From: Ktedonobacterales bacterium
GTDB taxonomy: Bacteria; Chloroflexota; Ktedonobacteria; Ktedonobacterales; DATBGS01
Assembly (NCBI GenBank): GCA_036557285.1
Contig: DATBHW010000073.1
Span: 551 to 64,550, forward strand
Reading direction: 5' to 3'
Length of the DNA: 64,000 nt
Made by a program: the position numbers and the translations under genes. The notes under the pieces were generated by a model. That model saw nothing but the letters and a program-made list of their open reading frames with translations. It had not been told where the DNA came from and made no database searches. The first letter of the stretch is position 1. Each line of letters starts with the position of its first letter. Positions 4,820-62,195 of this stretch are shown here, in pieces.

Positions 4820-4857
4820 TCCTCCCTTCGGAATTCACACGTATGGCAATTGGCGGC

Positions 4858-6204
<1,347 letters not shown>

Positions 6205-10698: not shown

Positions 10699-11608
10699 AG
10701 TGGGTGAAGTTCAGAAATTCGTGGTAGCGCGTGTTGATCTCTCCGGGCGAAAGCGTCTTCAGGCGGCTCATGCCGAAGTCTTCGCAGTGGAACGACCCCA
10801 TGATGTTGCCATGAACTAAGGCGCGCTTAAAGTCGGTAGTCGTCAGATCGCCATTCTTCTGGGAGGCGCGAGCGAGATAGCCGATGAAGCCGCCCGCAAA
10901 GGCATCGCCCGCGCCAGTCGGGTCGCGCACCTCTTCCAGGGGGTAAGCTGGCGCGGCAAAGAAGCTGCCATCTTTGCTGAAGAGCAGCGCGCCATAGGAG
11001 CCTTGCTTGATGACGATCATACGCGGGCCATCGGCCAGGATTTTATGCGCGGCTGTCACCAGGCCGGGTACGTCGGCGTACTGGCGCGCTTCCTCTTCGG
11101 ACATCAGCAGCACGTCAACTTTGCCGATCACCTCTTTGAGTTCTTTGGGCGTGCTGCTGATCCAGAAGTTCATGCTGTCCAGCACGCGCAGGCGCGCGCT
11201 GGTAGTTTGATCCAGCACTTCGTTTTGCAGCGAGGGATGGATATTGGCGAGAAAGAGGATGGGCGCGCTGCGATAGCTGGCGGGGATGATCGGGTGGAAA
11301 TCGGCAAAGACGCCCAGTTCGGTATAGAGTGTGTCGCGGGTGTTCATATCCAGGTGATAGCGCCCGCCCCAGCGGAAGGTACTCCCTTCCACGATCTGGA
11401 TGCCCGCGATGTCTGCGCCCCGGCTGCGGAAGTAGTCCAGGTACGCCTGGGGGAAATCGGTGCCGACGACGCCGATCATGTTGACGGTATCGTAAAACGA
11501 GGCGGCGGCGCAGAAGTGGGCGGCTGCGCCGCCCAGTATATCTTCGGCCCGGCCAAAGGGCGTTTCGACCAGATCAATGCCAATCGAGCCAACAACGAGA
11601 ATCGCCAT
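10667..11608 (-). CDS. PfkB-family carbohydrate/nucleoside kinase
   Basis: N-terminal VVGSIGIDLV and the C-terminal PfkB signature DPTGAGDAFAGGF. Start trimmed to ATG 11608. Confidence 0.85.
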   Translation of the reverse strand: MAILVVGSIGIDLVETPFGRAEDILGGAAAHFCAAASFYDTVNMIGVVGTDFPQAYLDYFRSRGADIAGIQIVEGSTFRWGGRYHLDMNTRDTLYTELGVFADFHPIIPASYRSAPILFLANIHPSLQNEVLDQTTSARLRVLDSMNFWISSTPKELKEVIGKVDVLLMSEEEARQYADVPGLVTAAHKILADGPRMIVIKQGSYGALLFSKDGSFFAAPAYPLEEVRDPTGAGDAFAGGFIGYLARASQKNGDLTTTDFKRALVHGNIMGSFHCEDFGMSRLKTLSPGEINTRYHEFLNFTHFDPDWVNGAR

Positions 11609-11646
11609 TATGAAAATATGCTCCTTATCCACTTGTAGCATCCACT

Positions 11647-11701
11647 TGTAGCGCCGCCTTCCAGGCGGCCAGCGACCAGCCGCCTGGAAGGCGGCGCTAC
11701 A
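11647..11701. repeat. Family-A minimal hairpin copy (55 bp)
   Basis: TGTAGCGCCGCCTTCCAGGCGGC-loop-GCCGCCTGGAAGGCGGCGCTACA, a ~23-bp perfect stem between the HD and PfkB genes. Confidence 0.85.
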
Positions 11702-11709
11702 GGTAGCTT

Positions 11710-12321
11710 TTAGACCTCAGAGCTACCTGTCAATTGCTCCAGAACGCCATCCAGAAAGGCCAGCGTGCGCCCAAACTTTTCGCGGCAGAGTTCTTTGGCG
11801 GTGTCGGTATAGAGCGACTGGAAGAGTTCAACGTAGCGTTCCTCGATATGGTGCAGGATAGCAGAGAGTGCCTCGTTGGTAAAGGTGCGATCAGGATATT
11901 TCGCGCCCAGTTCAATCAGCGAAGTGACGACGGCCAGCCCACCCAGGCGGCTGATTTTATCGGCATCGTAGAGGATTTGGCCCTCGATGGGTACGAGGTC
12001 GCGTTCTTCGGCGGGGGCGGCGAAGCTGTGTACCATGATGGCAGCCTGCACGCAGGCCACGCGCTCCTCTGGCACCCCCCATTCCCTCAGAAACGCCGCA
12101 GCCATTTCGGCGGAGCGCCGGTGATGCTCTTCTTTGCCATAGACGCCCGTGGAAATGTCGTGAAGATACGCCGCCATGACCAGCCCATCGTGGTCAACGT
12201 CTTCCTGGTCAACGGCCAGCATCTTACAGTTGGCGACGATGGTGCTGGCGTAGAGCAGCCCTTCAGGGCCGAGCATCTCTTGCACGTATTGGGTGATTGC
12301 GTCCTGAAGTTCGGGTTCCAT
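11710..12321 (-). CDS. HD-domain phosphohydrolase
   Basis: AAYLHDIS (HD dyad) plus a downstream His/Asp pattern. Confidence 0.75.
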   Translation of the reverse strand: MEPELQDAITQYVQEMLGPEGLLYASTIVANCKMLAVDQEDVDHDGLVMAAYLHDISTGVYGKEEHHRRSAEMAAAFLREWGVPEERVACVQAAIMVHSFAAPAEERDLVPIEGQILYDADKISRLGGLAVVTSLIELGAKYPDRTFTNEALSAILHHIEERYVELFQSLYTDTAKELCREKFGRTLAFLDGVLEQLTGSSEV

Positions 12322-12354
12322 CTCTGCCTCGCGTACCTCGTGTGTCTTGCTGGA

Positions 12355-13458
12355 TCAGGATTTGAGCGCGGCGCGTTGATCGCTGCTGATCCGTGCCAGC
12401 GCCTGGTCGAACGGTGGTCGGGCAATGCCACAATCGGTGATGATGGCGGTGATATAGCGATGCGGCGTGACATCAAAGGCCGGATTAGCTGCGTTGACGC
12501 CCTGCGGCGCGATGCGCACGCCGCGCAGATGGGTTACTTCGTCGGGCGGGCGCTCTTCAATCGTGATCTGCTCGCCAGAAGAGAGCGAGAGATCAATGGT
12601 CGAGCGCGGCGCGACAACATAGAAAGGAATGGTATGTTCCCGCGCCAGGATCGCCAGGCCATAGGTACCAATTTTATTAGCGACATCGCCGTTGGCGGCG
12701 ATGCGGTCTGCGCCCACAAACACGGCGTTGATACCCGCTTTGCGCATGAAGTGCGCGGCCATGTTGTCGGTAATCAGCGTGAGCGGGATGCCTTCCTGCT
12801 GCAATTCCCAGGTGGTAAGGCGCGCCCCCTGTAAGACGGGGCGCGTCTCGTCAACAAAGACATGGACGCGCTTGCCCTGGGCGCGCGCGACAAAGATAGG
12901 CGCCAGCGCGGTCCCGCGCCCGGCGGTGGCGAGCGCGCCCGCGTTGCAATGCGTCAGCAGCGTATCGCCATCGTGAATCAGCGCGGCCCCATAGTCGCCC
13001 ATACGCTGGCAGGCGTCGGCGTCTTCCCTGGCGATAGCCTCGGCTTCCGCCAGTAGACGCGCTGGCAGCCCTGGAGGTGCGCAGCCTTCCGCCAGCGCGG
13101 TCTGCGCCGCGCCGCGCATGCGCTCCAGCGCCCAGGGCAGATTGACCGCCGTCGGGCGGGTGCGCCGCAAGAGGGCGGCTATCTCATCGAACCGTGCCAG
13201 CGCGGCTCCGGCGCTTTCCAGCGCAGCCGATGACGCGCTGAGCAGCCCCAGCGCCAGGCCATAGGCCGCTGCTACGCCAATAGCTGGCGCGCCGCGCACT
13301 TTGAGTGTAATGATGGCTTCAGCAACCTCTTCTGCGCTGCGGCAGGCGAGGATGCTGACCTCATCGGGCAGGCGCGACTGATCGATCATGCGCAGGACGC
13401 CGCGCTGCGTGGCTGGCTCGGTTTCCCACCAGAGCGTTTGGAAAGCTTGGGCTTTCAT
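12355..13458 (-). CDS. mtnA: Methylthioribose-1-phosphate isomerase (eIF-2B alpha/beta/delta family)
   Basis: LRMIDQSRLP, RGAPAIGVAAAYG, THCNAGALAT and GADRIAANGDVANKIGTY. Start trimmed to MKAQAF at 13458. Confidence 0.85.
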   Translation of the reverse strand: MKAQAFQTLWWETEPATQRGVLRMIDQSRLPDEVSILACRSAEEVAEAIITLKVRGAPAIGVAAAYGLALGLLSASSAALESAGAALARFDEIAALLRRTRPTAVNLPWALERMRGAAQTALAEGCAPPGLPARLLAEAEAIAREDADACQRMGDYGAALIHDGDTLLTHCNAGALATAGRGTALAPIFVARAQGKRVHVFVDETRPVLQGARLTTWELQQEGIPLTLITDNMAAHFMRKAGINAVFVGADRIAANGDVANKIGTYGLAILAREHTIPFYVVAPRSTIDLSLSSGEQITIEERPPDEVTHLRGVRIAPQGVNAANPAFDVTPHRYITAIITDCGIARPPFDQALARISSDQRAALKS

Positions 13459-13570
13459 TTTTTGCCGCCTGATCTCGTATTCCTGGCGAGTGGAGCGTCC
13501 ATTGCTTGGGTTATTTCCCCCTCCATTATAGGATAAGTGGCGCTTCCTCACAAGCCGGACGCTCAGGCAG

Positions 13571-13776
13571 GGTTCCACCACCTATCGGGGGGGACTTGTA
13601 GCGCCACCTTCCAGGCGGCTAGCCACCTGTAGCGCCGCCGGGACGGCGGCCAGCGTTGGCCTGCTGGCGCCGTGGCCCGGAGGGCGAACGCTCGCCCTGG
13701 CGCAGCGTTGAGCCGCCAGGATGGCGGCGCTACAAGTAACACGTCTCGCCTACCAACCCCTCGTGTTTGGTGGGAC
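13571..13776. repeat. Family-A element with both flank modules
   Basis: Left GGTTCCACCACCTATCGGGGGGG, a TGTAGCGCC...GGCGCTACA core, and a right flank homologous to the reverse complement of GGTTCTCCCAAATCTGAGGTGTTGGCAAGCGAGGCGTGTTA. Confidence 0.75.
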
Positions 13777-16501: not shown

Positions 16502-17581
16502 CTAAGCAGCAGCGACTACGATAGGCTGTTTGACAGCAGCCCTGGAAATATTGATGGCAGCGTTGTAGTCGGCAGGCGCAGCGTACCCACACGACTGACA
16601 GACGAACTCAGCCTGGCTCTTGCGATTGGCTTTCTCGCAGTGTCCACAGACTGAGCAGGTGCGAGACGTATTGCGCGGGTCTACCAGATGGAGGCAGACG
16701 CCAGCAAGCGCGGCCTTATAGGAGAGGAAGGCACGGAGTTGGGCAAAGGACCAGGAGGCATGGCGATGACGCTGCGACCTTCTAACCGTGCTGTCCGTCC
16801 GTTGACGGATGTGTCTTAGGTCTTCAATCGCTATGCCGCGATGACTGGCCCTGGCTTTGGCAACCAGCTTTTTGCTGAGAACGTGGTTGGTGTTCGTATG
16901 AAAGCGGCGCTCTTTGCGCCGGAGGCGTTTGAGATGGCGTTTGGCCGATTTCGTACCTCGCTTTTGCAGGGCGGCCCGTAACTTCAAGAGGCGCGCTCTG
17001 GTGTGTTCCACCGCTTGCCCGCTGAAGGTGTCTCCGTCGCTGTCGGTGGCGAGGTTGACAATGCCCAGATCAACACCCAGCGTATCGGTAGGCTGCTCTG
17101 CGGGCGGCGTTGGCGCCTCCAGGGTTACGGCCAGAAAAAACACGCCGTTGCGGTAGATCAAATCAGCCTGGCCCTGGATGGCTTGCAGACGCGCCTCTTG
17201 ATACCCGCCAATGAGGAAGGGAACCAGGACACGCCCGGCGCGCGTCAAGAGCGAGACCTGATTCAGCCCCTTGAAGGACATCACCCGCTGGTCATAGACG
17301 ATGGCCCCTTCTGGGCGAAACGCGGGCTTGATGGCCTTATCGCGTTTGTAGACTTCGCTGGTCTTGCTGATGGCGCGTATCGCCAGTTGAGCGGGCAGCC
17401 TAAACTCAGCACGCAGGCGGGCATAGACGTGCTTCTGAAGTGCAAACTTGTTGGCGCTTTTCAGGGTAAATGCCTCTTCTGCTACCGCGTTGCAGGCGGC
17501 GTTAAAAGCGTGCATCACGTCCAAGAGGGCGCGATGCTGCGATGGCGCAGGGGCTAACTTCAAAAGCATGGTCTGTTTCAT
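16502..17581 (-). CDS. tnpB: TnpB (IS200/IS605-family OrfB, RuvC-like RNA-guided nuclease), apparently intact
   Basis: RuvC triad candidates LGVDLGIVN (D), GIAIEDLRHI (E) and ADYNAAINI (D). Zn ribbon CSVCGH...CQSCG. Confidence 0.9.
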   Translation of the reverse strand: MKQTMLLKLAPAPSQHRALLDVMHAFNAACNAVAEEAFTLKSANKFALQKHVYARLRAEFRLPAQLAIRAISKTSEVYKRDKAIKPAFRPEGAIVYDQRVMSFKGLNQVSLLTRAGRVLVPFLIGGYQEARLQAIQGQADLIYRNGVFFLAVTLEAPTPPAEQPTDTLGVDLGIVNLATDSDGDTFSGQAVEHTRARLLKLRAALQKRGTKSAKRHLKRLRRKERRFHTNTNHVLSKKLVAKARASHRGIAIEDLRHIRQRTDSTVRRSQRHRHASWSFAQLRAFLSYKAALAGVCLHLVDPRNTSRTCSVCGHCEKANRKSQAEFVCQSCGYAAPADYNAAINISRAAVKQPIVVAAA

Positions 17582-24017: not shown

Positions 24018-24209
24018 ATGAAGAAATCAACCGAACCCAAGTTGCCACGCTGGACCATCACCATTTCGCCTGCCTTGATTGATGAGTTTCGTACCCTGGC
24101 CGCCGAACATAAACGGTCCTTAAACAGTGAACTGGTCTGGGCCTTAGAGCAATACGCCAAAGCTGAGCGGCGGACAGGGAAGAAGGATGCTGACCCGCAA
24201 GGCGTTTAA
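24018..24209 (+). CDS. Arc/MetJ-type ribbon-helix-helix protein encoded inside the tnpB element
   Basis: RWTITISPALIDEFRTLAAEHKRSLNSELVWALEQY fits beta-strand/helix/helix with the RS-N-E Arc signature. TTGACA-N18-TAGAAT promoter lies 6 nt upstream. The 3' end overlaps tnpB by 23 nt. Confidence 0.7.
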   Translation: MKKSTEPKLPRWTITISPALIDEFRTLAAEHKRSLNSELVWALEQYAKAERRTGKKDADPQGV

Positions 24210-25367
24210 GTATCGCCTCTCCCCGACTCGCGCTCAGGAGCGTATCTTGCTCTGGACGCTTACCCGCTGTCGAGAACTCTACAACGCCGCCCTGCAAGAG
24301 CGCCGTGATGCCTATCGTATGGGGGGCGTTTCTATCCGCGGCTTCCATCAAATCAACCAACTGCCGGAAATCAAGCAAGAGCGACCGGAATATGCCGACA
24401 TCCACAGCCAGATCTTGCAAGATGTCTTGCGTCGGGTGGATAAGGCCATGCAAGGGTTTTTTCGGCGCGTGAAGGTGGGCCAAAAGCCCGGCTATCCGCG
24501 TTTTCAGGGGCGCAACCGCTACGATAGTTTCATGTATCCCCAGGCGGGCTTTGCGCTGGCGGGCGAACGCTTGACGCTCTCCAAACTTGGAGACGTCAAG
24601 GTGCGCCTGCATCGCCCGCTAGTGGGGCAGGTAAAAACCTGCACGATCAAGCGCGAAGCCGATCAATGGTATGTCTGCTTCTCCTGTGAGGTGGAAGAAG
24701 AACCGGTGCCCGTGAGTGATGAAGCGGTTGGCCTGGATTTGGGCCTGCTGCATTTTGCCACGCTCTCCACTGGGGAAACCATCGAAAACCCGCGCCACTA
24801 CCGCAAAGGACTGAAGAAGTTAGCGCTAGCGCAGCAGAAGGTGTCCCGCTGCAAACGTGGTTCCCATCGGCGGGAACGGGCCAGGAAGGCCGTAGCGCGT
24901 GCCCATCGCAAGATTCGTAACCAGCGCCATGACTTCCTGCACAAAGCGGCGCGCTCCCTGGTCAATCGCTATGGCCTGATCGTCATGGAAGACCTGAAAA
25001 TCACGAATATGAGTGCCGCGCCCGCACCCAAGCCCGCCCCAAACCAGGACGGCGCGTATTTGCCTAACGGAGCCAGCGCCAAGGCTGGCTTGAATCTGTC
25101 GATTCTTGATGCTGGTTGGGGCCAGTTCCAAACCCTCTGTGTCGCCAAGGCTGCAAGTGCCGGACGCCTAGTAGAGTTTGTGGACCCCGCTATACAAGCC
25201 AGCGGTGTAGCCAATGCGGAGCGATTGCCAAGAAAGAGCTTTCTGAACGCTGGCATAGTTGCTCCTGTGGCTGCGAACTAGACCGCGATCACAACGCGGC
25301 GATCAACATTCTTCAGGCTGGGAAGCAGCCCACAGGTCTACGGGCCTGGAGAAGCCCCCTGCTTTAG
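24187..25367 (+). pseudogene. tnpB: TnpB (IS200/IS605 OrfB) interrupted by a 1-nt frameshift in a C4 run (25185-25188)
   Basis: Frame 1 (24187-25281) has the N-terminus MLTRKAFKYRLSPT, VGLDLG (D) and LIVMEDL (E). Frame 0 (to 25367) has PRYTSQRCSQCG...CSCGCELDRDHNAAINI (Zn ribbon plus the third Asp). Confidence 0.8.
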
Positions 25368-32903: not shown

Positions 32904-34517
32904 CTATTTGGCTTTCACCATCTCGGCGGCCTCGCTGTGGCGCGGTTCCGGGCGGATGCCTGGGCAGCGTTGGGCCAGGGCATGGACTACCAGCGGCAGC
33001 GTCAGGGTCGAGTCGGCGCTGGAGAGCATCGCTTCCAGCGCGGGGAATGGCTCCGTTCCGCCCAGCGTGACGCTGTAGCGATAGGCCAGGGGCGTCGGGC
33101 TGAGCCGCGCCGCCTGGCGCAGCATCTCCGCAGGCGCGGCTGCGCGGCTGCCCACCAGGATCACGCCTGAATGCCGGGCGCTGGCGAGCGTGCCAGCCAG
33201 TTCCAGCGCGTCGCCGGTGGTGTCGAACTGGATGTGTCCCTTGCCCTGAGTGCGCGCGGCGGCCAGCGCCACCCCAATGGGGCTGCTGGCGATGTCGGGC
33301 GCGTAGATCGGGATGCCCATCTCGGCGGCGGCCTGAATGATGCCCTTGCGTGGGGCCATGTGTCGCAGCGCCGCGCCCAGCCGCCGAAAAAATGCGCTCG
33401 TCGTCAGGGTGGTCGCCTCCGCCAGCGTGGCGCTGAAATCAATCAGCAGCGTTTCGGTCTGGCGCAGTTCCTCGCGGGAGGCAGCCAGATCGGCGGTGCG
33501 TTCATAGCCGCTGGCAAAGAGCGCCACATCGGTGACGTGCGCGGCGCTCTGATAATGCCTGGAGCCGCGCGCCTCGTGCAGATCATGGAAGAGATTTTCG
33601 GCGCTGACGATCAGCCCGTTGATGGCGCGATGCTCGATCAGATAGACGAGCAGTTCGCGCAGCCCGGCGGGAATCAGCGGGCCGGAAAGTCCCAGCAAGA
33701 TCGTAGAGTCTGCGTCGCGCAGCATGCGTTCCCAGAGGTTGAGCGCGGCGGCGAGCCGCTGTCCTTCGGAACCCAGCCCGCTCATTTTGTCCAGCAGACC
33801 ACTGATCGAGGCGGTTGGGTTGATCTGGATCGGTTCGGTGGGGAGCATCTCTGGCGCAGCGGCGGGCGTGGCGCTGGCTCTGTGCGCCTTGCCCTTGCTG
33901 TTCCCTTTGTCGGCGCTGTGCGCCGGGTCCGGCGCTGCTGCTCCGTAGGTTCCGTAGTCGGGAGTGACCCCATATTGCGGCCAGATCATACGACCTGTCT
34001 GATTGAACTGCTCGTCACGTCGGGCCAGATGCTCGCGCACGCCATCTTTCTTGTCTGCCAGGGATGCGAGGTCTGCGGCGCGGCGGCCAGCAGCCCTCAG
34101 CAGCGGTTGGCCGGTTTCGGCGTCGCTGCCAAACGCACCATGATGTGGCCCATGAAAGCTGAGACCGCGCTGCAACAGGACGCGATCCATCTCCTGCACC
34201 TCAAGGGCTTCTTTGATATAGGTGATGGCGGTCTCGTGGTCGAAGTTGCGACACGAGAAAATGTCCATCGTAAAGTAGTCGAGTTCGGGGAAGGTGTGGA
34301 TGGCGATATGGCTTTCGGCGATGACAACAAGGCCAGACACGCCGGAGTATTCCGGGTCGGGGGCCTGGTATTCGAACATATACGGCCCGCCGATTTTCGT
34401 CATGCCAATCGCGCGAGGGTAGTCGTTGAGGAGTTGTTCAATCAGAATCCGGTCGCCAAGCTTTTGGGTGTTGCACTTGCTCCCATCAATAATCAGGTGA
34501 GGGCCGAACAACTTCAC
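32904..34517 (-). CDS. Fusion protein: pyruvoyl AdoMetDC/SpeD-like decarboxylase (N-terminal) plus deoxyhypusine-synthase-like domain (C-terminal)
   Basis: N-terminal ~120 aa: GPHLIIDG...VSGLVVIAESHIAIHTFPE (ES|H self-cleavage site). A ~110-aa Ala/Pro-rich linker follows. C-terminal: ILLGLSGPLIPAGLRELLVYLIEHRAINGLIVSAENLFHDL...RHY, GIPIYAPDIASSPIG and DSTLTLPL, like DHS family motifs. GTG start with AAGGAG. Confidence 0.75.
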   Translation of the reverse strand: MKLFGPHLIIDGSKCNTQKLGDRILIEQLLNDYPRAIGMTKIGGPYMFEYQAPDPEYSGVSGLVVIAESHIAIHTFPELDYFTMDIFSCRNFDHETAITYIKEALEVQEMDRVLLQRGLSFHGPHHGAFGSDAETGQPLLRAAGRRAADLASLADKKDGVREHLARRDEQFNQTGRMIWPQYGVTPDYGTYGAAAPDPAHSADKGNSKGKAHRASATPAAAPEMLPTEPIQINPTASISGLLDKMSGLGSEGQRLAAALNLWERMLRDADSTILLGLSGPLIPAGLRELLVYLIEHRAINGLIVSAENLFHDLHEARGSRHYQSAAHVTDVALFASGYERTADLAASREELRQTETLLIDFSATLAEATTLTTSAFFRRLGAALRHMAPRKGIIQAAAEMGIPIYAPDIASSPIGVALAAARTQGKGHIQFDTTGDALELAGTLASARHSGVILVGSRAAAPAEMLRQAARLSPTPLAYRYSVTLGGTEPFPALEAMLSSADSTLTLPLVVHALAQRCPGIRPEPRHSEAAEMVKAK

Positions 34518-34671
34518 GCTCCTTACACGGCCACAGGGCCGCTAACTATTGCCTGTATGGAAGCAGGCGATATACCAGGAAAGATAGCTGCCAAGCAAGG
34601 TATTGGGCAGTTTGCGGGTGGTCAGCGTACTGCCATCGGTACTCATACAGTCGGTCCTTTCGTACTCCGAC

Positions 34672-34709
34672 AAAAAACACCCCAAAAACACGCGCGTTCG
34701 CATGTTTTT
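34672..34709 (-). terminator. Terminator/attenuator-like hairpin inside the SpeD-DHS leader
   Basis: Minus-strand AAAAACATGCG-AACG-CGCGTGTTTTTGGGGTGTTTTTTG. The 7-bp core stem includes a G-U pair that would be a C-A mismatch on the plus strand. Confidence 0.3.
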
Positions 34710-34832
34710 GCCAGGGCCTGCCCAGCGAGGGGTGCGCGGGTGTCCGTTCGGTTGAAGTCCTGCGTTTGTGGAGCGGCGCCCACACTGACGCCTGCTCAGG
34801 TAAACTACGATGAACTACAAGGCACTGGTGAG

Positions 34833-34862
34833 AGTATAGCATATGGCGCTATGAATACGCAA
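34833..34862 (-). promoter_or_regulatory. Putative promoter of the SpeD-DHS fusion gene leader
   Basis: On the minus strand, TTGCGT-N18-TATACT with a TGC extended -10 box. It lies ~310 nt upstream of the GTG start. Confidence 0.4.
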
Positions 34863-34970
34863 AGGGAACGGCGCGGGTTGCAGCACGTTGCCAATGCGCA
34901 GCGAGCAGCGTACAATTAGAAACAATCTTTCTAAGAACACCATCTTTCTACTCAGGAGACGAAGCCGCCA

Positions 34971-49259: not shown

Positions 49260-50021
49260 TTAACCGCCAGCCTGCTGCCAACATGTGAGAGAAGCAGGCT
49301 GCCCCTGCACAGCCAGCGCCGCAACGTAGCCGGGACCAGGAGAGAGCGCGTGGAGCGACCAATCTGAGCTATCCTGGCCCTCTTCTCTGGTCGCCAGAAG
49401 TGCCGCTGGCTCCCCAGGAGCGAGCGAAACATCGAACAGGTTCAGGTCGAGCGAAAGACCCAGACCCCTCGCTTTGACATAGGCTTCTTTGCGGGTCCAG
49501 CAATTCAGGAAGGCTTCTTGCTTGTCCTGCGCAGCAACCGCCTGGAGCGCGTACACCTCATGGGGGGAGAAGAACCGCGTGGCGATTTGCTCATAGTCTG
49601 CGCCAGCGGGGCTGATCTGTTCGAGATCAATGCCGATAGCTCCGCAGCGTGTGATCGCGTAGAGGGCCAGGTCGTGGGAGTGCGCCAGATTGAAAAGCAG
49701 CGGCTCACTCCCTACTTCATCGGCGAGGGCTGGCTTGCCATATTCGTTGTAGGAGAAGCGCAGTGTCTGCGGCTCCCTGCTCAGATAGCGGCCCAGGATG
49801 CTTCTGAGCATGCCCCGCGCCGCGATAAAGCGGGCGCGGTCCCGTGAGAAGCGAAACTGCGACGCTCGCTGCCGTTCATCGGCAGCGAGCGTCTGCTCCA
49901 GCGCCTGCATATGTGACGCCGACAGGTTCAGCCTGGCGCGCCAGATATGCGCCTCGTCGGATGCTAAGATGGGTCGCTCTGGCGCCGCGCTCCAGAGGGA
50001 CTCCTGCGCGCTCAGCGTCAT
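49260..50021 (-). CDS. Sfp-type 4'-phosphopantetheinyl transferase
   Basis: GIDLEQI and WTRKEAYVKARG motifs. Start ATG 50021 overlaps the NRPS stop (ATGA). Confidence 0.85.
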   Translation of the reverse strand: MTLSAQESLWSAAPERPILASDEAHIWRARLNLSASHMQALEQTLAADERQRASQFRFSRDRARFIAARGMLRSILGRYLSREPQTLRFSYNEYGKPALADEVGSEPLLFNLAHSHDLALYAITRCGAIGIDLEQISPAGADYEQIATRFFSPHEVYALQAVAAQDKQEAFLNCWTRKEAYVKARGLGLSLDLNLFDVSLAPGEPAALLATREEGQDSSDWSLHALSPGPGYVAALAVQGQPASLTCWQQAGG

Positions 50022-53000
50022 ACCCGCTCTAGCTCGGCCTCCTGAACTTTTGCCAGGCAGGCGCTGAACTCTTCGGCCAGGCTGGAAAGGTGTTTGGTGA
50101 GGCAGCTCAGATGATCGCCAGGAATGACGTGCAGTTCCGTTTCTTGCGCGGCATCGGCAAGCCCGCGCCATTCGCTGGAGTCAGCGACTTCCTCTTTTGC
50201 CCAGAAGAACGTGATCTTGCCAGGATAAGCGCCAGGCGTATAAGCGGCTAACATCCAGGCAGTCATTGACCAGCGATCCCGGCAAAGCGTCGCCAGGGTT
50301 GGGAAAATCGCGCGGAGGCTGGGAAACGCCGCGCTCCCCTTGCCACGCCTGCGCCCGGCCTTGTTCATCTCCCGCCGGTACGGCGCAAACCGCAGGTACT
50401 TATAGAGGTGCCGTACCCACAGGAACGAATAGAACTGGCGATATTCTCCGATCCGCAGCGCCTTGCCAGGCAGGCTGATCGCGCGGCGCGTCAATTTGTC
50501 GGAGGCCGGAGCAGGCGGTGTGGGGTCAATCAAAACCAGCAAATCAACCTGCTGCCCTTGCCCTTGAAGCTGCCGGGCTATTTCATAGGCCAGCAGACCG
50601 CCGATGCAAAAGCCGCCCAGCAGATACGGACCTTCCGGCTGAATGGCCTGGATTGACCTTACATGCGTGGCCGCCATCGCCTCGAATGTGGGCGGAGCCT
50701 GCCGGGTATCAAACTTATACGGCTCGACGGTGTAGAAAGGCTGTTCTGGCCCCAGGTGATCAGCCAGGGGGAAGCAGTAGTAAGCGCCGCCGATGCGATC
50801 CTCGTGCATATAGAAGATCGGGCGTCTGGAACCGCCGGATTGAACCGCCACCACCGGCGCTTCGGCGATGGTAATGTCTTGTGACAGAATCTCGGCAAGC
50901 TGTTCAATCGTTGGCCCCGCAAAGAAGGTCGCCAGCGGAATCTTTTTGCCAAAGACCTGCTCGATGCCATTGACCAGGCGGGCTGCAAGGAGTGAATGCC
51001 CGCCTAAGAAGAAGAAGTTATCCCTGATCCCGATGGGCCGCGCCTCCAACAGTTCCTCCCAGAGATGGATCAGTTGATAGTGGACCATAGACATGGGCGG
51101 AACATAGTGTTCTTCCGCCGCGCTGTCCAGTTCAGGCGCGGGCAAGGCGCGTCGGTCTATTTTGCCGTTGGGCGTCTCAGGGAAGGCATCCAGCGTGGTG
51201 AAGGCCGCAGGTATCATGTAATCCGGCAGGTATTCACGCAAAAAGCTGCGCAGTTCATTGGCCTTGATTTCTTGCTGCTGGTGCGCGACGACGTAGGCGA
51301 CCAGGCGTTTGTCGCCCGGTGTATCCTCGCGGGCCAGCACCACCGCCTGCCGCACCGCCGGGTGCTGGACCAGTGTCGTCTCGATTTCGCCCAGTTCGAT
51401 GCGGAAGCCGCGAATCTTCACCTGAAAATCAACGCGCCCCAAGTGATCGATCTGCCCATCGGCGCGATAGCGGGCCAGATCGCCGGTCCTGTAGAGGCGC
51501 GCGTCTGGCCTGGCGCTAAAGGGATGGGGAATGAATCGCTCGGCGGTTAACTCCGGGCGATTGAGATAGCCGCGAGCCAGGCCGTCGCCCCCAATATAGA
51601 GTTCGCCTGGCACGCCGATGGGCGTTGGATTCAGGTGGGCGTCAAGCACGTAGATTTCTGTGTTGGCAATCGGACGCCCAATCGAGAGATCGTCTGCCGA
51701 CTGAACCAGAGAAAGCGTAGACCAGATGGTCGTTTCCGTCGGGCCGTACATGTTCCAGACGGAACCCGCTCTCGGCAGAAGCTGCGCGGCCAGTTCCGGG
51801 GGGAAAGCTTCGCCGCCGCAGAGAATCTTCAAGTACGGGCTGCCCTGCCACCCGGCGGCCAGCAGCAGCCGCCAGGTAACGGGTGTCGCCTGCATCACCG
51901 TAGCGCCGGAACGGGCCATGAGTTCGGCCAGCGCCGCGCCGTTGACAGTCGTTTCCCGGCTGGCGATGATGACCCGCGCGCCGACGATCAGCGGCAGGAA
52001 GAGTTCAAGACCGGCAATATCGAATGAGAGCGTGGTGATAGCCAGCAGCCGATCATTCGCCGTCAGCCCTGGCTGCTGGCGCATCGAGAGCAGGAAGTTG
52101 ACGACGGCGCGATGGGGAATCTGAACGCCCTTTGGCTTCCCCGTCGAGCCAGAGGTATAAATCACATAGGCCAGGTTCTCGGGGTTGGCCTGGGAGACCG
52201 GATTGAGGCTGCTCTGCTGTTTGAGCAGCGCCGCGTCGGCATCCAGGCGAACAATTTTGGCTGCGCCAGCGGGCAGTTGTGTCGTCAGGCGCTGCTGTGT
52301 GACCAGCGCCATGACCTGGGCATCCTCCAGCATGAAGGCCAGCCGTTCCTGGGGAAAGGCCGGGTCCAGTGGAATGTAGGTTCCGCCCGCCTTGAGGATG
52401 CCCAGCAGGCCCACGACCATCTCCAAAGAGCGTTCCATATACAGGCCCACGCGCACATCCGGGCCGACTCCCAGCTTCTGGAGGTAATGAGCAAGCTGAT
52501 TTGCGCGCTGGTTCAGTGCTTGATAGGTCAGTTGTTCCTTCTCATACACCAGGGCTACCCCTTCTGGTGTTCGCTGCGCCTGCGCCTCAAAAAGCTGGTG
52601 AACACACTCGTTCTCAGGATAGGCTGCCTGGGTGGCATTCCATGCTACCAGCAGTTGGCTGCGCTCCGCTTCTGTCAGCAGCGGCAGCCGAGAAAGGGGC
52701 TGGTCGGGGTTGGCTGCGATGTCTTGGAGCAAGGTCTGGAAATGCCCGGCCATCCGCTCGATGGTGGCGGCCTCAAAGAGATCGATATTGTACTCCAGCG
52801 ATCCGACCAGGCTGCCCGCCTCTTCCCAGATGTAGAGGGTCAGATCGAACTTGGACATGCTGATCTCTACGTCTAGGGAAGAGAGCGACAACCCGGCAGC
52901 CTCGACAGCGGTTGGCGCGGCATTCTGGTCGGCAATGACCACCTGGAAGAGCGGCGAATGGCTCAGGCTGCGTTCGGGGTGCAGCGCCTCCACCAACTTC

Positions 53001-54118
53001 TCGAAGGGCAGTTCATGATGGGCATACGCCTCCAGCGCCATTTTGCGTACCCGCTTGAGCAGTTCCCGAAAGCCGGGGTCGCCCGAAAGATCGGTGCGCA
53101 GCACCAGCATCGTGACCAGATACCCGATCAACTCCTGAACCTCGCTGCGGTTGCGGTTGGCGATAGGCGAACCCACCACGATGTCTTCCTGCCCAGTATA
53201 GCGGGAAAGCAGCACGTTGAAAGCCGCCAGCAAAGTCATGAAGATCGTCGCGCCTTCCTGCTGACTCAACGTCTGAATCTGCTCGGTGAGCGCCCTGGAG
53301 AGTCGAAAATTGTGGACGGCCCCACGAAAGGTCTGGATGGCCGGGCGTGGATGATCGGTAGGCAAATCCAGCACTGCGGGAGCGTCGGCCAACTGCTGTT
53401 TCCAGTAGGTAAGCTGGTCTTCCATCCGCTCCCCTTGCAGCCACTCGCGGCGCCAGAGGGCATAATCAGCGTATTGGATGGGCAGTTCAGGCAGCGGTGA
53501 TGGCTGTCCGGCGGTGAAGGCGCTGTAGAGGGTGGTCAGTTCTCGGACCAGAATACCTACCGACCACCCATCAGAGATGATGTGGTGCATGAGCAGAAGC
53601 AGGATATGTTCCTGCTCCGTCAGCCGGAACAGCATGGTCCGCAGCAGCGGCCCCTGGGCAAGATCGAATGGGCGCGTTATCTCCTCATTGATGGACTGTA
53701 TGGCTCGCGGCCAGCGCGCGCGATCTTCCAGGTCGCGCAGGTCTACCACCGAAAAAGGTAACTGGAGGGAGGAGGCGATCATCTGCACCGGGCGACCCTC
53801 GATGGCGGGGAACGTGGTACGCAAGGACTCGTGGCGTTTCACGATTTCTTGCAGGCTTTGCTCAAGCGCGGCGAGGTCGAGCGGGCCACTCAGGCGCAGC
53901 GCGTAGGGCAGATTATACGCCGCGCTGCCTGGAGTCAGTTGGTCAATGAACCAGAGCGGCTCCTGGGCAAAGGAGAGCGGTGGGTTAGACATGACCTGGC
54001 TGCGGCGCGGGATCGCCGTCGGGGTGGTCGTCACTTTTTGCTGCTCGATGAGCCGCTTCAGCAGGATTTCGCGTTTCTCCGGGGAAAGGTCTGCAATGCG
54101 TTTTGACAGGTCACTCAT
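50018..54118 (-). CDS. NRPS module 3: C-A-T-TE
   Basis: C domain MHHIISDGWS. A domain LAYVIYTSGSTGKPKG, NMYGPTE, GELYIGG and PNGKIDRRALP. T domain FFFLGGHSLL. TE domain GPYLLGGFCIGG...IPGDH. Confidence 0.95.
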   Translation of the reverse strand: MSDLSKRIADLSPEKREILLKRLIEQQKVTTTPTAIPRRSQVMSNPPLSFAQEPLWFIDQLTPGSAAYNLPYALRLSGPLDLAALEQSLQEIVKRHESLRTTFPAIEGRPVQMIASSLQLPFSVVDLRDLEDRARWPRAIQSINEEITRPFDLAQGPLLRTMLFRLTEQEHILLLLMHHIISDGWSVGILVRELTTLYSAFTAGQPSPLPELPIQYADYALWRREWLQGERMEDQLTYWKQQLADAPAVLDLPTDHPRPAIQTFRGAVHNFRLSRALTEQIQTLSQQEGATIFMTLLAAFNVLLSRYTGQEDIVVGSPIANRNRSEVQELIGYLVTMLVLRTDLSGDPGFRELLKRVRKMALEAYAHHELPFEKLVEALHPERSLSHSPLFQVVIADQNAAPTAVEAAGLSLSSLDVEISMSKFDLTLYIWEEAGSLVGSLEYNIDLFEAATIERMAGHFQTLLQDIAANPDQPLSRLPLLTEAERSQLLVAWNATQAAYPENECVHQLFEAQAQRTPEGVALVYEKEQLTYQALNQRANQLAHYLQKLGVGPDVRVGLYMERSLEMVVGLLGILKAGGTYIPLDPAFPQERLAFMLEDAQVMALVTQQRLTTQLPAGAAKIVRLDADAALLKQQSSLNPVSQANPENLAYVIYTSGSTGKPKGVQIPHRAVVNFLLSMRQQPGLTANDRLLAITTLSFDIAGLELFLPLIVGARVIIASRETTVNGAALAELMARSGATVMQATPVTWRLLLAAGWQGSPYLKILCGGEAFPPELAAQLLPRAGSVWNMYGPTETTIWSTLSLVQSADDLSIGRPIANTEIYVLDAHLNPTPIGVPGELYIGGDGLARGYLNRPELTAERFIPHPFSARPDARLYRTGDLARYRADGQIDHLGRVDFQVKIRGFRIELGEIETTLVQHPAVRQAVVLAREDTPGDKRLVAYVVAHQQQEIKANELRSFLREYLPDYMIPAAFTTLDAFPETPNGKIDRRALPAPELDSAAEEHYVPPMSMVHYQLIHLWEELLEARPIGIRDNFFFLGGHSLLAARLVNGIEQVFGKKIPLATFFAGPTIEQLAEILSQDITIAEAPVVAVQSGGSRRPIFYMHEDRIGGAYYCFPLADHLGPEQPFYTVEPYKFDTRQAPPTFEAMAATHVRSIQAIQPEGPYLLGGFCIGGLLAYEIARQLQGQGQQVDLLVLIDPTPPAPASDKLTRRAISLPGKALRIGEYRQFYSFLWVRHLYKYLRFAPYRREMNKAGRRRGKGSAAFPSLRAIFPTLATLCRDRWSMTAWMLAAYTPGAYPGKITFFWAKEEVADSSEWRGLADAAQETELHVIPGDHLSCLTKHLSSLAEEFSACLAKVQEAELERV

Positions 54119-54124
54119 CTCACG

Positions 54125-57100
54125 TCATCTCTCCGTTCGCTTGCTCTCAATTACCAGGATGTCTTGCGCTTCATGATCGGAAAGCTGCTCAAGCTCTGCG
54201 AGCAACTGGGCCGTTACTCCATCTTCGATCTGGTCGGCCTGACACTGCACAATTCTTATAGCCAGGCTGGCTATCGTTGGCGCCTCAAAGAGACTGGACA
54301 ACGGAAGCTCTATATTGAAGATGTCATGCGCCCGCGAGAGGGCGCGCACCGCCAGGAGCGAATGCCCCCCCAACTCAAAGAAGTTCTCGTTGATGCCCAC
54401 CTGCTTGAGTCCCAGCAGTTCTGTCCAGATCGCGGCCAGTTGTTCCTCGGTAGGGGTGCGCGGCGCTGCAAGAGCCGCTTCTGGCTGTTCTCTGTCGCCC
54501 TCCGGGGCAGGCAGCGCCCGCCGGTTCAGTTTGCCGTTGGGGGTCAGCGGCACATATTCTAACATAACAAATGCCGATGGGATCATATGCTCTGGCAGGT
54601 GTTCCTTCAAGAAGCCGCGCAGGGCGCTGCTGGTGGGGGACTGGCCCGCAGCAGGCACAAGATACGCCACCAGGCGCTTCTCGCCAGGGGTGTCTTCGCG
54701 GGCCACGACCACTGCCTCGCGGACCTGGGGATGCTGGCTCAGGATACTCTCGATCTCGCCTGGTTCGATACGGAAGCCCCGAATCTTCACCTGGAAGTCG
54801 GCGCGCCCGATGTACTCCAGATTGCCATCGGGATGATAGCGGGCGAGATCGCCGGTCTTGTAGAGGCGCGCGCCTGGCTCCTGACTGAACGGGTTGGGGA
54901 TAAACCGCTCGGCGGTCAGTTCCGGGCGGTTCAGATAGCCACGCGCCAATCCGTCGCCGCCGATATAGAGTTCGCCAGGCACACCGATAGGGACAGGCTG
55001 AAGGTGGGCGTCAAGCGCGTAAACCTGCAAGTTGGCGTTAGGCCGACCAATGAGTATCGTGGAAACCTCCTGATCTTCGCCCTCCCTCACCAGATCATAG
55101 GTGGTTGCGCCGATGGTTGCCTCGGTTGGGCCATAGCAGTTGCTCCAGCGAACGCGCTTAGGGACGCGCTCCTGCCAGAGCGTCAGACGCTGTAGCAGGG
55201 CTTGCTCGCCCCCCGTGATGACCCAGCGCAGGCTCTCCGGCAGCGGTGTGTTTGCTTTGGCGAGTTCATAGGTCCAGGTATGCCAGTAGGCTGTCGGGAG
55301 GTTCAGAATGCTCAGCCGCTCATGCTCTATGAGCCGGAACAATTCCTCGAAGGTCAGGGCAACCTGTACAGGCCGCAGCACCAGCGCGGCCCCCGCCAGC
55401 CAGCATGGGAAGATTTCCTCTGCTGCCGTATCAAAGCTGAGCGAAGCAAATTGCAAGATGCGATCAGCAGGCCGGACATCGAAGTGTTTGATAAAGGCCA
55501 GGTTATGGTTGACGAGCGCGCGATGGGCAATCTGAACGCCCTTCGGTTTCCCCGTAGAGCCAGAGGTGTAGATGACATAGGCCAGGTTGTCGGCCTGGAC
55601 CGCGCTGACGGGGTTCGTCGTGGGTTCTTGAGCGATTTCTGCCCACTGCCCATCCAGGCAAATGACGCGAGCGTTCTGCGCGGGAAGCTGCGCCAGCAGA
55701 TGCTGCTGCGTGAGTAGAACGGCTGCCTGGCTGTCCTCCAGCATGAAGGCCAGGCGCTCTGTGGGATAGCTGGGGTCCAGCGGCACATACGCGCCGCCCG
55801 CCTTGAAAATACCGAGGAGTCCCACCGCCATTTCCAGCGAACGCTCCACACAGAGGCCCACGAGTGTCTCTGGCCCCACCCTTTGCTTTTGGAGATGATG
55901 GGCCAGTTGGTTGGCGCGCGCGTTCAGTTCCCCATAGGTAAGCTGGCGCCCCTCGCTGACAAGAGCTACTGCGTCTGGCGCGCGCGCCACCTGCTGCTCG
56001 AAGAGCCAGTGGACACACTGGTCCTGGGGGTAATCGGCTTGGGTAGCATTCCACTCTACCAGCATCTGCTCTCGCTCGGCCTCTGGTAAGAGCAAAAGCT
56101 GGGAGATAGGTTGGTCGGGATCAACCGCGATGCCTTCCAGCAGCGTCTGGAAATGCCCAGCCATCCGCTCGATGGTCGCCGCCTCGAACAGATCGGTGTT
56201 GTAATCGAACGTGCCGCTGAGATCCTCTGGCCGCTCCTTTAAGGCGAGGCTCAGGTCAAACCCGGCGTCGAGGCCAGCCCCGATATGCAGCAGGGCGGCA
56301 GCCCACCCGGAAGGCAGGGCAGGCGGCGGCGATTCAAGCGTAAACATCGTCTGGAAGAAGGGGTTCTGCCGTGGCGCGCGCTCCGGGTGGAGTTCTTTGA
56401 CCAGATGCTCGAAGGGCATGTCCTCGTGATCCAGCGTGGAGAGCGTGGTCTCGCGTACCCGCTGAAGCAGCGCCCGGAAGCCTGGATCGCCAGAGAGGTC
56501 CAGACGCAGGGCCAGGGTATTGATGAAGACGCCCAACAGCCCACGGACTTCTTCCTGCTTGCGGCCAGCGGAAGGGGTACCAATAATGAGGTCCTCCTGG
56601 CCGGAACAGCGCGCCAACAGGACAGCGTAGGCGGCCAGCAGAGTCATGAAAAGGGTAGCGCCCCCCTGCTGGCTGAGGGCTTTGAGGGCAGCGGTTGTCT
56701 GTGCAGGCAGGGTGAACGAATGCGCGCACATCTGGCCTTTGGAGGCGACGGGACGCGGGTGATCGCCAGGCAGCGCAAGATCGGTTGGCGCTCCGGCCAG
56801 ATGATGCTTCCAGAAATCCAGATGCTCTGCCAATGCCCTTTCGTCGAGCGTTTCGCGCTGCCAGCAGGCGTAATCGGCATATTGGATGGGCAGCTCTGGC
56901 AAGAGCGAGGGCTGGCCGGTCGCATACGCCTGGTAGAGAGCATATAGCTCTGGCAGGAGTATCTGCGAGACAGAGAAGCCATCGGAGATGATGTGATGGA
57001 GGGTTAAGAACAGCCGATGCTCCTCATCGTCCAGGCAAACGAGGCGGGCGCGCAGCGGGGGCGCCTGCGAGAGATCAAAGGGCGCGGTGGTATTCTCTGC

Positions 57101-57517: not shown

Positions 57518-57641
57518 GATGCTCTATCACTCCTAGTGGAGAGCGTCTTTCGCTGTCAATGGCGGCTTCCAAATCAGCCCCTGATGTGCTCAGCTTAAGC
57601 GAGAGACGATTCCACTATTAAAACGGGTTCGCAGTGCCCTT

Positions 57642-60929: not shown

Positions 60930-61143
60930 ATTTTTGTTATTTCCTTCTCCTACTTCCTTCTCCTCATGAGAAGGGAAATGGCGCCGGGGATGGTAGAAAG
61001 GACTTGCCTTTGTCCTGAAGAAATACCATAGAGCCTCTCTCTTGAGAAGAGAGAGAAGATGGGTTGAGATATGGTTATGACTATGCCCAAGAGGGGTATG
61101 AATTGTGATACTGCGTCCCGCTCGTCGAGGCATGAGCAGACTC

Positions 61144-61384
61144 GGTTCCACCAACTATCGGAGGCGTCACCTGTAGCGCCGCCATCTTGGCGGCCACCGC
61201 TGCGCCAGGGCGAGCGTTCGCCCTCCAGGCCACCGGACCAGTGGGCCAACGTTGAGCCGCCTGGAGGGACGCGCGAGCGACCAACGGGAGCGAGAGTGCC
61301 GAGGCCCAGCCGAGGCAAGCGGCCCTTCCCGAAGGGATGGCGGCGCTACGAGTACCATGCCTCGCTTGCCAGATCTCATTTTTT
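61144..61384. repeat. Family-A full MITE-like element, inverted orientation, with an 8/9 TSD
   Basis: 11-bp perfect TIR GGTTCCACCAA...TTGGTGGAACC. Flanked by AGCAGACTC (61135-61143) and AGCGGACTC (61385-61393). Confidence 0.85.
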
Positions 61385-62189: not shown

Positions 62190-62195
62190 TAGGGT

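Follow-up and report, generated by a model that had tools for sequence, protein, structure and literature searches.

The window analyzed here is a stretch of 64,000 nucleotides (nt) from a Ktedonobacterales soil bacterium of the phylum Chloroflexota (contig DATBHW010000073.1), and its minus strand carries, at 32904..34511, an open reading frame (ORF) for a 535-residue fusion proenzyme. In this protein, a pyruvoyl decarboxylase domain of the SpeD/S-adenosylmethionine decarboxylase (AdoMetDC) fold is followed by a linker and then by a domain resembling deoxyhypusine synthase (DHS). Our overall reading, to which we assign a probability of roughly 0.65, is that the gene encodes a self-processing decarboxylase of the SpeDA type that has retained a dead SpeY domain and is controlled by a leader peptide and RNA structure. 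By ancestry, the two halves would be SpeDA (a pyruvoyl L-arginine decarboxylase) and SpeY (diagmatine synthase), consecutive enzymes of the agmatine-dependent homospermidine pathway. The enzyme families of both halves and their pathway are already known. As far as the searchable literature shows, what is new is the fusion itself, the order-wide decay of one half to a pseudoenzyme domain, and the leader.

The TTG at 34511, which is preceded by the Shine–Dalgarno (SD) sequence AAGGAG (34519..34524, minus strand, read from the sequence) at a distance of 7 nt, is the more likely start; the alternative, a GTG at 34517, would give 537 residues (32904–34517, minus strand). An earlier sequence-only reading had pointed to the same 32904–34517 interval as a single-ORF fusion and had missed the strand. 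The 535-residue product is 100% identical to a public protein, P0001, named 'MAG TPA: adenosylmethionine decarboxylase [Ktedonobacterales bacterium]', and 'adenosylmethionine decarboxylase' is also the public name of fusion family members at NCBI and JGI. Both PF02675 and PF01916 match, and the same two-domain architecture is found as a single ORF in at least 235 protein clusters, down to 46% identity. These clusters come from independent NCBI, JGI, ENA and Logan assemblies, contigs of 0.3–3 Mb included, and their organism-named members all belong to Ktedonobacterales. Because the same single ORF appears in so many independent assemblies, we conclude that the fusion is not an assembly or frameshift artefact.

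For family-level comparisons we used an alignment, A1, of 26 fusion members: 24 degenerate (the window protein and 23 others) and two intact (P0033 and P0034), in the sense described below. Mean pairwise identity in A1 is 87% for the SpeD half, 48% for the linker and 46–52% for the DHS-like half. Between the window gene and its L005 ortholog, dN/dS (Nei–Gojobori) is 0.04, 0.20 and 0.19 for the same three segments, figures that are rough because dS (0.8–1.3) is close to saturation. The linker (residues 119–228; 33834..34163, minus strand) is real, as the sequence-only reading had it: about 110 residues, rich in Ala and Pro, modeled by AlphaFold2 (AF2) with pLDDT values of 30–50 and hence predicted to be disordered. 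It is mostly variable, and two motifs are conserved in intact and degenerate fusions, namely GLSFxGPHHG at residues 118–127 (GPHHG at residues 123–127, nt 34137–34151) and WPQYGVTPDYGTYG at residues 179–192 (nt 33942–33983). On the opposite strand, a plus-strand ORF at 33171–34919 (582 residues) is longer than the true gene. It is without domain support and was rejected as a GC-rich shadow ORF, of a kind that is typical of high GC content and could mislead gene callers.

The SpeD/AdoMetDC-fold domain, predicted to be of the SpeDA type, spans residues 1–118 (34164..34517, minus strand). PF02675 matches residues 7–118 over its entire length (profile positions 1–107 of 107, 93.8 bits, E 1e-26), and structures of the Thermotoga maritima AdoMetDC match the N-terminus at E 1e-11. 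The residues E68-S69-H70, H74 and C89 are invariant across the 26 fusion members, in keeping with the ES|H processing site that had been proposed earlier from the letters of the window. The predicted self-cleavage site lies between E68 and S69 (34311..34316, minus strand), where S69 would give rise to the pyruvoyl group. S69, the catalytic H74 (34296–34298, minus strand) and the catalytic C89 (34251–34253, minus strand) align to T. maritima S63, H68 and C83, respectively, whose roles in SpeD enzymes have been described (PMC10407285).

Which substrate class does this domain belong to? We compared it with validated AdoMetDC and SpeDC sequences, taken from Fig. S5 of PMC10407285, and with SpeD homologs linked to agmatinase or SpeY genes. 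Identity to the latter is 43–54%, with no gaps, and cluster-type SpeDs score 112–115 bits. The AdoMetDC domains of T. maritima, Desulfotignum and Omnitrophica show 31–35% identity with 2–4 gaps (54–67 bits), and validated SpeDC domains show 21–25% identity (24–27 bits). Four residues around the 'ETS' site are diagnostic of SpeDC (PMC10407285); these residues (Gln, Thr, Phe and Tyr; QLIETSL..GHFA..Y.D.FSC) are absent from the window protein, which has VVIAESHIAIHTFPELDYFTMDIFSC. The domain is 80% identical to the SpeD half of the intact fusions P0033 and P0034, which argues for the same substrate and a role in agmatine supply. It is 48% identical, again gap-free, to the SpeD of an AdoMet_dc-DS-agmatinase operon (L009), with which it has the motifs HLxIDG, IGMTKI, IAESHIxIHTFPE and FSC in common.

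Gene context points in the same direction. We examined 80 loci of this SpeD subfamily from species-representative genomes of Dehalococcoidia, Thermodesulfobacteriota, Eisenbacteria, Abditibacteriaceae and others, which hold the closest standalone relatives. An arginase/agmatinase-family gene lies immediately downstream in 53 of the 80 and a DHS homolog directly follows the SpeD gene in 10, while a spermidine synthase gene is adjacent in none. Two of the linked arginase-family proteins were tested; both passed the agmatinase equivalog (206 and 239 bits, cut-off 174) and failed the arginase equivalog. These contexts are identical to those of validated SpeDA enzymes: the SpeDs tested from speD-speY-speB clusters (Woesearchaeota, Solirubrobacter, Capsulimonas and Marinimicrobia) were all arginine-specific decarboxylases, as was the second paralog of the Vampirovibrio speD-speD-speE-speB cluster (PMC10407285). 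A similar pairing of paralogs, which serves as a natural control, occurs in Microcystis phage MaAM05, whose cluster speH_2-speH_1-speE-speB (L090, MW495066.1 246315–249093) encodes both SpeD classes. The speH_2 product is 59% identical to T. maritima AdoMetDC and the speH_1 product 29%; it is speH_1 that aligns gap-free with the window SpeD domain, at 46% identity. As a side observation, this four-gene cluster implies that the phage encodes its own path from arginine to spermidine. The closest phage SpeD homologs belong to MaAM05 and to a 735-kb phage, neither of which is covered by the PNAS 2023 virosphere paper.

Fusion to a SpeY-derived domain, relatives linked to agmatinase and DHS genes, and the sequence comparisons place the SpeD half most probably in the SpeDA class, whose members were established as pyruvoyl arginine decarboxylases by the Michael lab, and not in the AdoMetDC type. 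Its reaction is most likely the conversion of arginine to agmatine, judging from these comparisons.

The C-terminal half has a DHS/SpeY fold and appears catalytically degenerate (residues 229–525; 32943..33833, minus strand). PF01916 (DS) matches residues 241–457 significantly (147 bits, E 9e-43), covering profile positions 2–217 of 288 only, and the Pyrococcus horikoshii and human DHS structures match the C-terminal half of the protein. Cut-offs of the DHS/SpeY equivalogs are not reached (NF002006, 187 versus 434 bits; NF002699, 92 versus 500; NF001980, 96 versus 450). In the AF2 model, the domain has a pLDDT of ~90, and its top Foldseek matches are all DHS, with target-normalized TM values of 0.62–0.74; 7CMC is the best (0.74), and 6DFT is among the matches.

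To locate the losses, we tabulated residues in human DHS numbering, with five standalone homologs and the intact fusions P0033 and P0034 as controls. Alignment with all of these and with human DHS identifies a deletion of ~19 residues at about residues 490–494 (33036..33050, minus strand). The deleted loop corresponds to approximately F312–I330 of the human enzyme, including E323, W327 and the catalytic K329. It is gone in all 24 degenerate members, while the E-x-x-S-W-G-K Lys loop is present in all seven controls. The NAD site has fared no better. Human G283, G284 and D238 are replaced by S457, A460 and S411, and the small residue at the G133 position by E307; among the NAD-site residues checked (G282–G284, D238, the 131–133 turn and D342), D342 alone is kept, as D502. 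Overall, of the 114 positions at which the seven functional sequences are all identical, 84 have lost their conservation in the degenerate clade. Because the Lys loop is deleted and the Gly-rich motif and the NAD-binding Asp are lost, the DHS half of the window protein and of the other degenerate members is predicted to be catalytically dead.

These data agree with the suspicion, voiced in the sequence-only reading, that the Gly-rich NAD motif is replaced and that the DHS half may be a pseudoenzyme. The same reading was right about the absence of the catalytic Lys and wrong about how it was lost: EAMLSS is not a mutated EAxSWGK motif, as LEAMLSS aligns after the Lys and the loop itself is deleted. 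The dead domain is still under purifying selection, and the DHS fold is retained. Three positions, P280 (~33678–33680), D408 (~33294–33296) and L440 (~33198–33200), are near-invariant in the dead domain, where functional homologs have an invariant Ala, Ala and Thr; all three map to the former NAD and substrate loops. As for variation within the family, the DHS-like domain of clade B (e.g. P0059, P0116) is shortened by a second deletion, of ~16 residues at about human positions 150–170, and no longer has the His that the window's clade keeps at the position of human E137.

The two intact members indicate where this domain came from. P0033 and P0034 keep STGANLFHD, GDSS, GGGTPKN and YWGGLSGCTFxEAQSWGK, match DHS profiles end to end at ~400 bits and align with human DHS through K329. 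A neighbor-joining (NJ) tree of DHS domains, computed with five standalone outgroup sequences and 200 bootstrap replicates, unites all fusions in a single clade (94%). The intact pair sits at its base on short branches, and a long stem leads to a clade (100%) of all degenerate members. Since the tree and the common ~19-residue deletion agree, the data fit a single ancestral deletion followed by accelerated evolution. The window protein would then have arisen by decay from an ancestral fusion that was still intact, a point that the sequence-only reading had missed; on the sequence evidence, we think it probable that this ancestor was a SpeDA–SpeY fusion.

A search with the P0034 DHS domain returned P0033 and then standalone DS proteins of 330–350 residues at 53–59% identity. 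The best of these, P0121, is encoded in the L009 operon, in which AdoMet_dc (120 residues), DS and arginase-family genes overlap. Two other nearest standalone DS genes are paired with PvlArgDC, a pyruvoyl arginine decarboxylase of unrelated fold, and an agmatinase-family gene is also found near two of the three nearest standalone DHS genes paired with an arginine decarboxylase. At one such locus (L008, 6712–10285), three ATP-grasp genes and a GNAT acetyltransferase gene lie downstream of the DS-PvlArgDC pair, possibly for polyamine or peptide modification.

Of two readings offered earlier from the window's letters, the second, a neofunctionalized ornithine/arginine decarboxylase combined with a DHS-like homospermidine enzyme, is supported as the origin of the fusion, and in its arginine form. 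It holds as origin because of the intact SpeY-type basal members, the AdoMet_dc-DS-agmatinase operon and the agmatinase/SpeY-linked class of the SpeD half.

SpeD and DHS have been joined more than once. Among 50%-identity representatives of the SpeD search, two further SpeD-DS fusions, of an origin independent of the Ktedonobacterales family, were found: P0361 (441 residues, a linker of ~27 residues and a full DS profile at 363 bits) and P0260, which is MBW2993654.1, a partial protein from Ca. Woesearchaeota. Their DHS halves belong to the archaeal/eukaryotic type and have intact GGGIAKHH and EAKSWNK motifs. The window SpeD aligns gap-free with that of the Woesearchaeota fusion at 43% identity, and a cluster-encoded SpeDA from Woesearchaeota has been validated (PMC10407285). 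That the two families have fused at least twice strengthens the functional link between them.

From these observations we propose the following mechanism for the protein. The proenzyme would cleave itself between Glu68 and Ser69 into a β chain of ~7.6 kDa and an α chain of ~50 kDa, whose N-terminal Ser69 would become the pyruvoyl cofactor; we infer this self-cleavage from the conserved site. With the decarboxylase site completed by His74 and Cys89, the SpeD module would convert arginine to agmatine. In the ancestor, as presumably still in P0033 and P0034, the C-terminal module would have coupled two agmatines to N1,N9-bis(guanidino)homospermidine by means of NAD and the catalytic Lys. In the window lineage, which is nearly the whole family, one ~19-residue deletion would have taken the Lys loop, the NAD site would have decayed and aminobutyl transfer would have been lost. 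DHS is a tetramer, and class-1b SpeD needs dimerization. The dead domain would most likely be kept to help the decarboxylase oligomerize, as a scaffold, or to regulate it.

Upstream of the fusion gene we found a conserved leader peptide and a structured 5′ RNA, neither of which had been seen in the sequence-only reading. The leader ORF (34542..34646, minus strand) has 34 codons, MSTDGSTLTTRKLPNTLLGSYLSWYIACFHTGNS, with an ATG start, its own SD (AAGGA) and a UAG stop. Of 51 fusion loci, 44 of them added from metagenomes (L091–L134), 45 carry it, compared with none of 84 standalone SpeD/DHS loci. It occurs upstream of the intact-type gene and of genes from both degenerate clades, including L001 (9858–9962), L005, L006 and most of L091–L134. 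Its total length varies from 26 to 46 codons, owing to a variable middle part flanked by a conserved N-terminus (MSTD/G) and a conserved stretch of 14 final residues (YLSWY[IL][AG]CF[HQ][ST]G[NDE]S). Over the last 14 codons of 29 unique sequences, entropy at codon positions 1, 2 and 3 is 0.24, 0.21 and 1.00 bit, and differences from the consensus number 116 synonymous versus 51 nonsynonymous. The leader is therefore conserved at the peptide level, most strongly at its C-terminus. No match to the peptide was found in NCBIfam at E up to 10, and none to the leader region in Rfam.

All 35 unique leader sequences end in a TAG stop. Among the 45 loci, the leader always starts with ATG and the main ORF never does, its start being GTG in 26 and TTG in 19, with an AGGAG-type SD 7–9 nt before it. 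The spacer between leader and main ORF is most commonly 30 nt long. In the window it holds a GC-rich hairpin, GCGGCC-CUGU-GGCCGU (34527..34542, minus strand), which starts at the G of the UAG and ends 2 nt before the SD of the main ORF. Per-sequence folding predicts such a hairpin in 34 of 35 unique spacers, typically at –7 to –11 kcal/mol and with a mean z of –2. In a fixed-column count, 76% of cells are paired, compared to 21–51% in slid controls; none of 500 shuffles attained the observed number of compensatory cells, and the arms covary. RNAalifold gave no consensus on the fixed-column alignment of 30-nt spacers because loop and stem lengths differ, and hence per-sequence folding and the pair count were used. 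We also considered a switch in which the 3′ arm of the hairpin pairs with codons 3–4 of the main ORF (CGGCC). It was dropped, as pairing amounts to 4–5 bp only; such a switch is not testable by covariation because its target is fixed by coding for F-G-P.

Farther upstream lies a structured 5′ leader RNA (34672..34737, minus strand; RNAfold, –31 kcal/mol). In the window, two hairpins lie within an outer stem (CACCCC/GGGGUG), behind which comes a U-run; the element thus resembles a terminator, and it also gave a terminator-like hit. For six sequences of the window's clade, the consensus has 32 pairs, five with compensatory changes, which amounts to weak covariation support. The clade-B RNA has the same topology and a divergent sequence. 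Six of the eight pairs of its P1 covary, and P1 stacks on an invariant CCUCCU/GGG·AGG helix (CCUCCU/GGGYAGGGAG) that closes two variable hairpins. A covariance model of the clade-B element, R1, matches upstream of every clade-B fusion gene (for example L102 1265–1371 and L006 9748–9860) and nowhere else in the sequence searched. Neither form has an Rfam match, even at E up to 10. Given that the pathway handles guanidino compounds, a guanidine-type riboswitch was considered and rejected: there are no ACGR loops, and Rfam was silent at the same threshold.

We suggest that these elements, the translated leader peptide, its invariant UAG, the stop-codon hairpin, the weak GTG/TTG start and the structured 5′ RNA, act together as a cis control device. 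A ribosome stalled at the UAG in dependence on the nascent peptide would sit over the hairpin's 5′ arm and loop and hold the hairpin open. The SD, 18 nt downstream of the UAG, would then be freed of adjacent structure, and stalling would probably raise initiation at the weak main start. A more specific version, which we consider less likely than not, has two parts. The leader would sense a metabolite (arginine, agmatine or a polyamine) through a block of release factor 1 (RF1) at the UAG, in conjunction with the 5′ RNA, and the dead SpeY domain, rather than being a passive remnant, would serve as a covalently attached prozyme or sensor that gates the decarboxylase. The remodeled site (P280, D408, L440) would then bind agmatine or a polyamine for feedback control, and in function the leader would be a counterpart of SpeFL with a separate origin. 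Arginine as substrate, self-cleavage, the scaffold or regulatory role and any ligand or direction of leader control are interpretation; the architecture, the conserved processing and catalytic residues, the paralog class, the loss of DHS catalytic and NAD residues, the retained fold, purifying selection and the peptide-level conservation of the leader are observed directly.

Several observations weigh against parts of our interpretation. The SpeD half passes the NCBI AdoMetDC equivalog cut-off (TIGR03330; 83.4 versus 75.65 bits), a cut-off that is not discriminating because SpeY/agmatinase-linked SpeDs score 69–85 bits and the T. maritima AdoMetDC 156. It also retains the Pro of HTFPE, which may be the Pro described as invariant in true AdoMetDCs and variable in SpeDA (PMC10407285). 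No agmatinase or other agmatine-consuming gene was found in 301 kb around 51 fusion genes. The assignment to arginine rests on gene context and class similarity, not on similarity to a specific validated sequence; a search with an Armatimonadota homolog returned none of the validated SpeDA accessions (e.g. Capsulimonas corticalis WP_119321511) among its matches. The new residues P280, D408 and L440 hint that the dead domain has been remodeled and is more than a structural element, long-branch attraction could affect the NJ tree, and the dN/dS figures carry the saturation caveat given above.

How do other explanations fare against these data? To the idea that the fusion is an artefact, with two neighboring genes joined by frameshift, assembly join or read-through, we give practically no credence. 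A long low-complexity linker rich in Ala and Pro could in principle conceal such a join, and SpeD and DS genes do overlap in standalone operons such as L009, but the single ORF recurs across the clusters, large contigs among them, and the linker has family-wide motifs and a dN/dS of 0.20. A more substantial alternative is that the SpeD half is a genuine AdoMetDC and that the fusion links the supply of decarboxylated S-adenosylmethionine (dcSAM) to a DHS-like module acting on spermidine. The TIGR03330 score, the public names and the retained Pro speak for it, and it is close to the first of the two earlier readings, in which dcSAM production was coupled to aminopropyl or aminobutyl transfer. 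However, the gapped 31–35% identity to AdoMetDCs compares poorly with the gap-free 43–54% to cluster-type SpeDs, and TIGR03330 gives a true AdoMetDC 156 bits and the agmatinase-linked homologs 69–85. No spermidine synthase gene adjoins the SpeD gene at any of the 80 subfamily loci or lies next to a fusion gene, and where both paralogs occur in one operon, as in MaAM05, the window domain matches the non-AdoMetDC paralog. We therefore regard this explanation as unlikely, and the first of the earlier readings as contradicted by the identity and synteny data.

The decarboxylase might instead act on another amino acid (ornithine, lysine and so on), with the DHS-like domain having acquired a new ligand or a catalytic function independent of NAD and Lys. 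SpeD homologs have changed substrate repeatedly (PMC10407285), the near-invariant P280, D408 and L440 sit in former active-site loops, and agmatine-consuming genes are missing nearby. Yet the ornithine-class diagnostic residues are absent (the window has IAESHI), identity to validated SpeDC domains is 21–25%, and the close match (80% identity) between the SpeD domains of the window protein and the intact SpeY fusions argues for an unchanged substrate, which makes this explanation quite improbable. It is also doubtful that the dead domain is a 'prozyme' that activates a separate, weakly active SpeY/DHS, so that homospermidine is still made. Such activation has a precedent in trypanosomatids, in which a dead paralog activates DHS 3000-fold in a heterotetramer (PMC3663545); 6DFT appears among our fold matches, and purifying selection and the retained fold also speak for this explanation. 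Against it, there is no second DHS homolog in the 301 kb around the 51 fusion genes and no standalone Ktedonobacterales DHS among the best 120 matches to the intact domain, most of which lack an organism name. We thus favor the SpeDA-type decarboxylase with a dead, retained SpeY domain over these alternatives.

The fusion gene is monocistronic, and its neighbors are not conserved. Besides the missing agmatine-consuming genes and second DHS, the 301-kb regions around the 51 fusion genes contain no second SpeD and no clear SpeE, the sole candidate being one weak match of 27% identity (L116). The sequence-only reading had suggested local enrichment of SAM metabolism. The genes concerned do exist in the window, metK at 3530–4819, ahcY at 4858–6135 and a gene of the MtnA/IF-2B family at 12355–13581. 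Their distance from the fusion gene is 19–29 kb, and in L001, L005 and L006, which represent three other lineages, no metK-, ahcY- or mtnA-type gene was seen up to 10 kb from the fusion gene; on these two grounds we reject the neighborhood argument. The metK-ahcY pair (3530–6135) is on the minus strand, and the MtnA-like gene belongs to a separate minus-strand group at 9811–13581 that also contains genes for a GNAT protein, a PfkB-family kinase and an unknown protein. Elsewhere in the window, there are two IS605 OrfB/TnpB-like genes (16502–17581, minus strand; 24187–25281, plus strand), one with a Cas12f1-like TNB domain, three large nonribosomal peptide synthetase genes on the minus strand (50018–61154) with condensation-adenylation-thiolation (C-A-T) modules, the last of them with a thioesterase domain, and a two-component system (61518–63641).

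Fusion of consecutive enzymes is classic independent evidence of a functional link. In this sense, the window-type and archaeal fusions support the recently proposed route from arginine through agmatine and diagmatine to homospermidine, and both support reassigning many 'AdoMetDC' annotations to arginine decarboxylase. For the fusion proteins themselves, the public labels 'adenosylmethionine decarboxylase' and 'deoxyhypusine synthase' are probably both wrong. The family also offers a clean natural case of the birth of a pseudoenzyme domain and its persistence across a bacterial order, in which the intact relatives serve as controls and make directly testable the question of why dead domains persist. 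To our knowledge, very few ligand-sensing arrest peptides have been described. The combination of leader peptide, invariant UAG, stop-codon hairpin and non-AUG main start makes the window leader a candidate new member of this group, from outside Proteobacteria and Firmicutes.

No prior description of a SpeD-DHS or SpeD-SpeY fusion was found in the literature searched, which included PMC10407285 and PMC13625781. The sole SpeY 'fusion' met there is a TBLASTN query composed of SpeY and an alanine-racemase-fold (AR-fold) ornithine decarboxylase (ODC), and nothing relevant on polyamines of Ktedonobacteria was found. The nearest known systems are the speDA-speY-speB clusters (Li et al., JBC 2023, PMC10407285; JBC 2026, PMC13625781), in which SpeY makes N1,N9-bis(guanidino)homospermidine from two molecules of agmatine (PMC13625781). 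They contain the same two families in the same order and are home to the closest standalone relatives of both halves, and P0033 and P0034 keep all SpeY catalytic motifs. In the fusions, however, the two halves form one polypeptide through a ~110-residue linker, there is no adjacent agmatinase/diagmatinase gene, and the SpeY half in the window has lost the catalytic Lys loop and the NAD residues. The fusions of the DPANN archaea (P0260, P0361) have the same domain order and a SpeD of the same paralog class (the 43% gap-free identity noted above). They differ in their independent origin, their ~27-residue linker, their intact archaeal/eukaryotic-type DHS active site and their lack of a leader peptide.

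Two further systems are instructive with regard to the dead domain. In the SpeD-SpeDC fusion of Victivallis vadensis (PMC10407285), an active N-terminal decarboxylase is likewise followed by a retained C-terminal domain without key residues, although the dead partner there is a SpeD paralog rather than a DHS fold and the domain that stays active is a genuine AdoMetDC. The dead DHS paralog (PMC3663545; PDB 6DFT) and the AdoMetDC prozyme (PMC5201418) of trypanosomatids provide a conceptual model for a non-catalytic DHS fold under selection. The trypanosomatid prozymes are separate polypeptides that activate a homologous subunit, whereas the dead DHS domain of the window is fused to a non-homologous decarboxylase and has no known catalytic DHS partner.

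For the leader, the closest parallel is SpeFL (orf34; bioRxiv 10.1101/604074). It too has 34 codons and lies upstream of a polyamine decarboxylase gene (speF, in γ-proteobacteria), its conservation is at the peptide level and strongest near the C-terminus, and an mRNA hairpin takes in the last part of its reading frame; in E. coli, its stop is UAG and RF1 is blocked there. The window leader differs in having no apparent sequence similarity to SpeFL and in belonging to Chloroflexota, and its stop is invariant in the fusion family, whereas that of SpeFL varies. The spacer to the main ORF is ~30 nt, compared to 257 nt for SpeFL, which suggests that control is probably translational rather than Rho-dependent.

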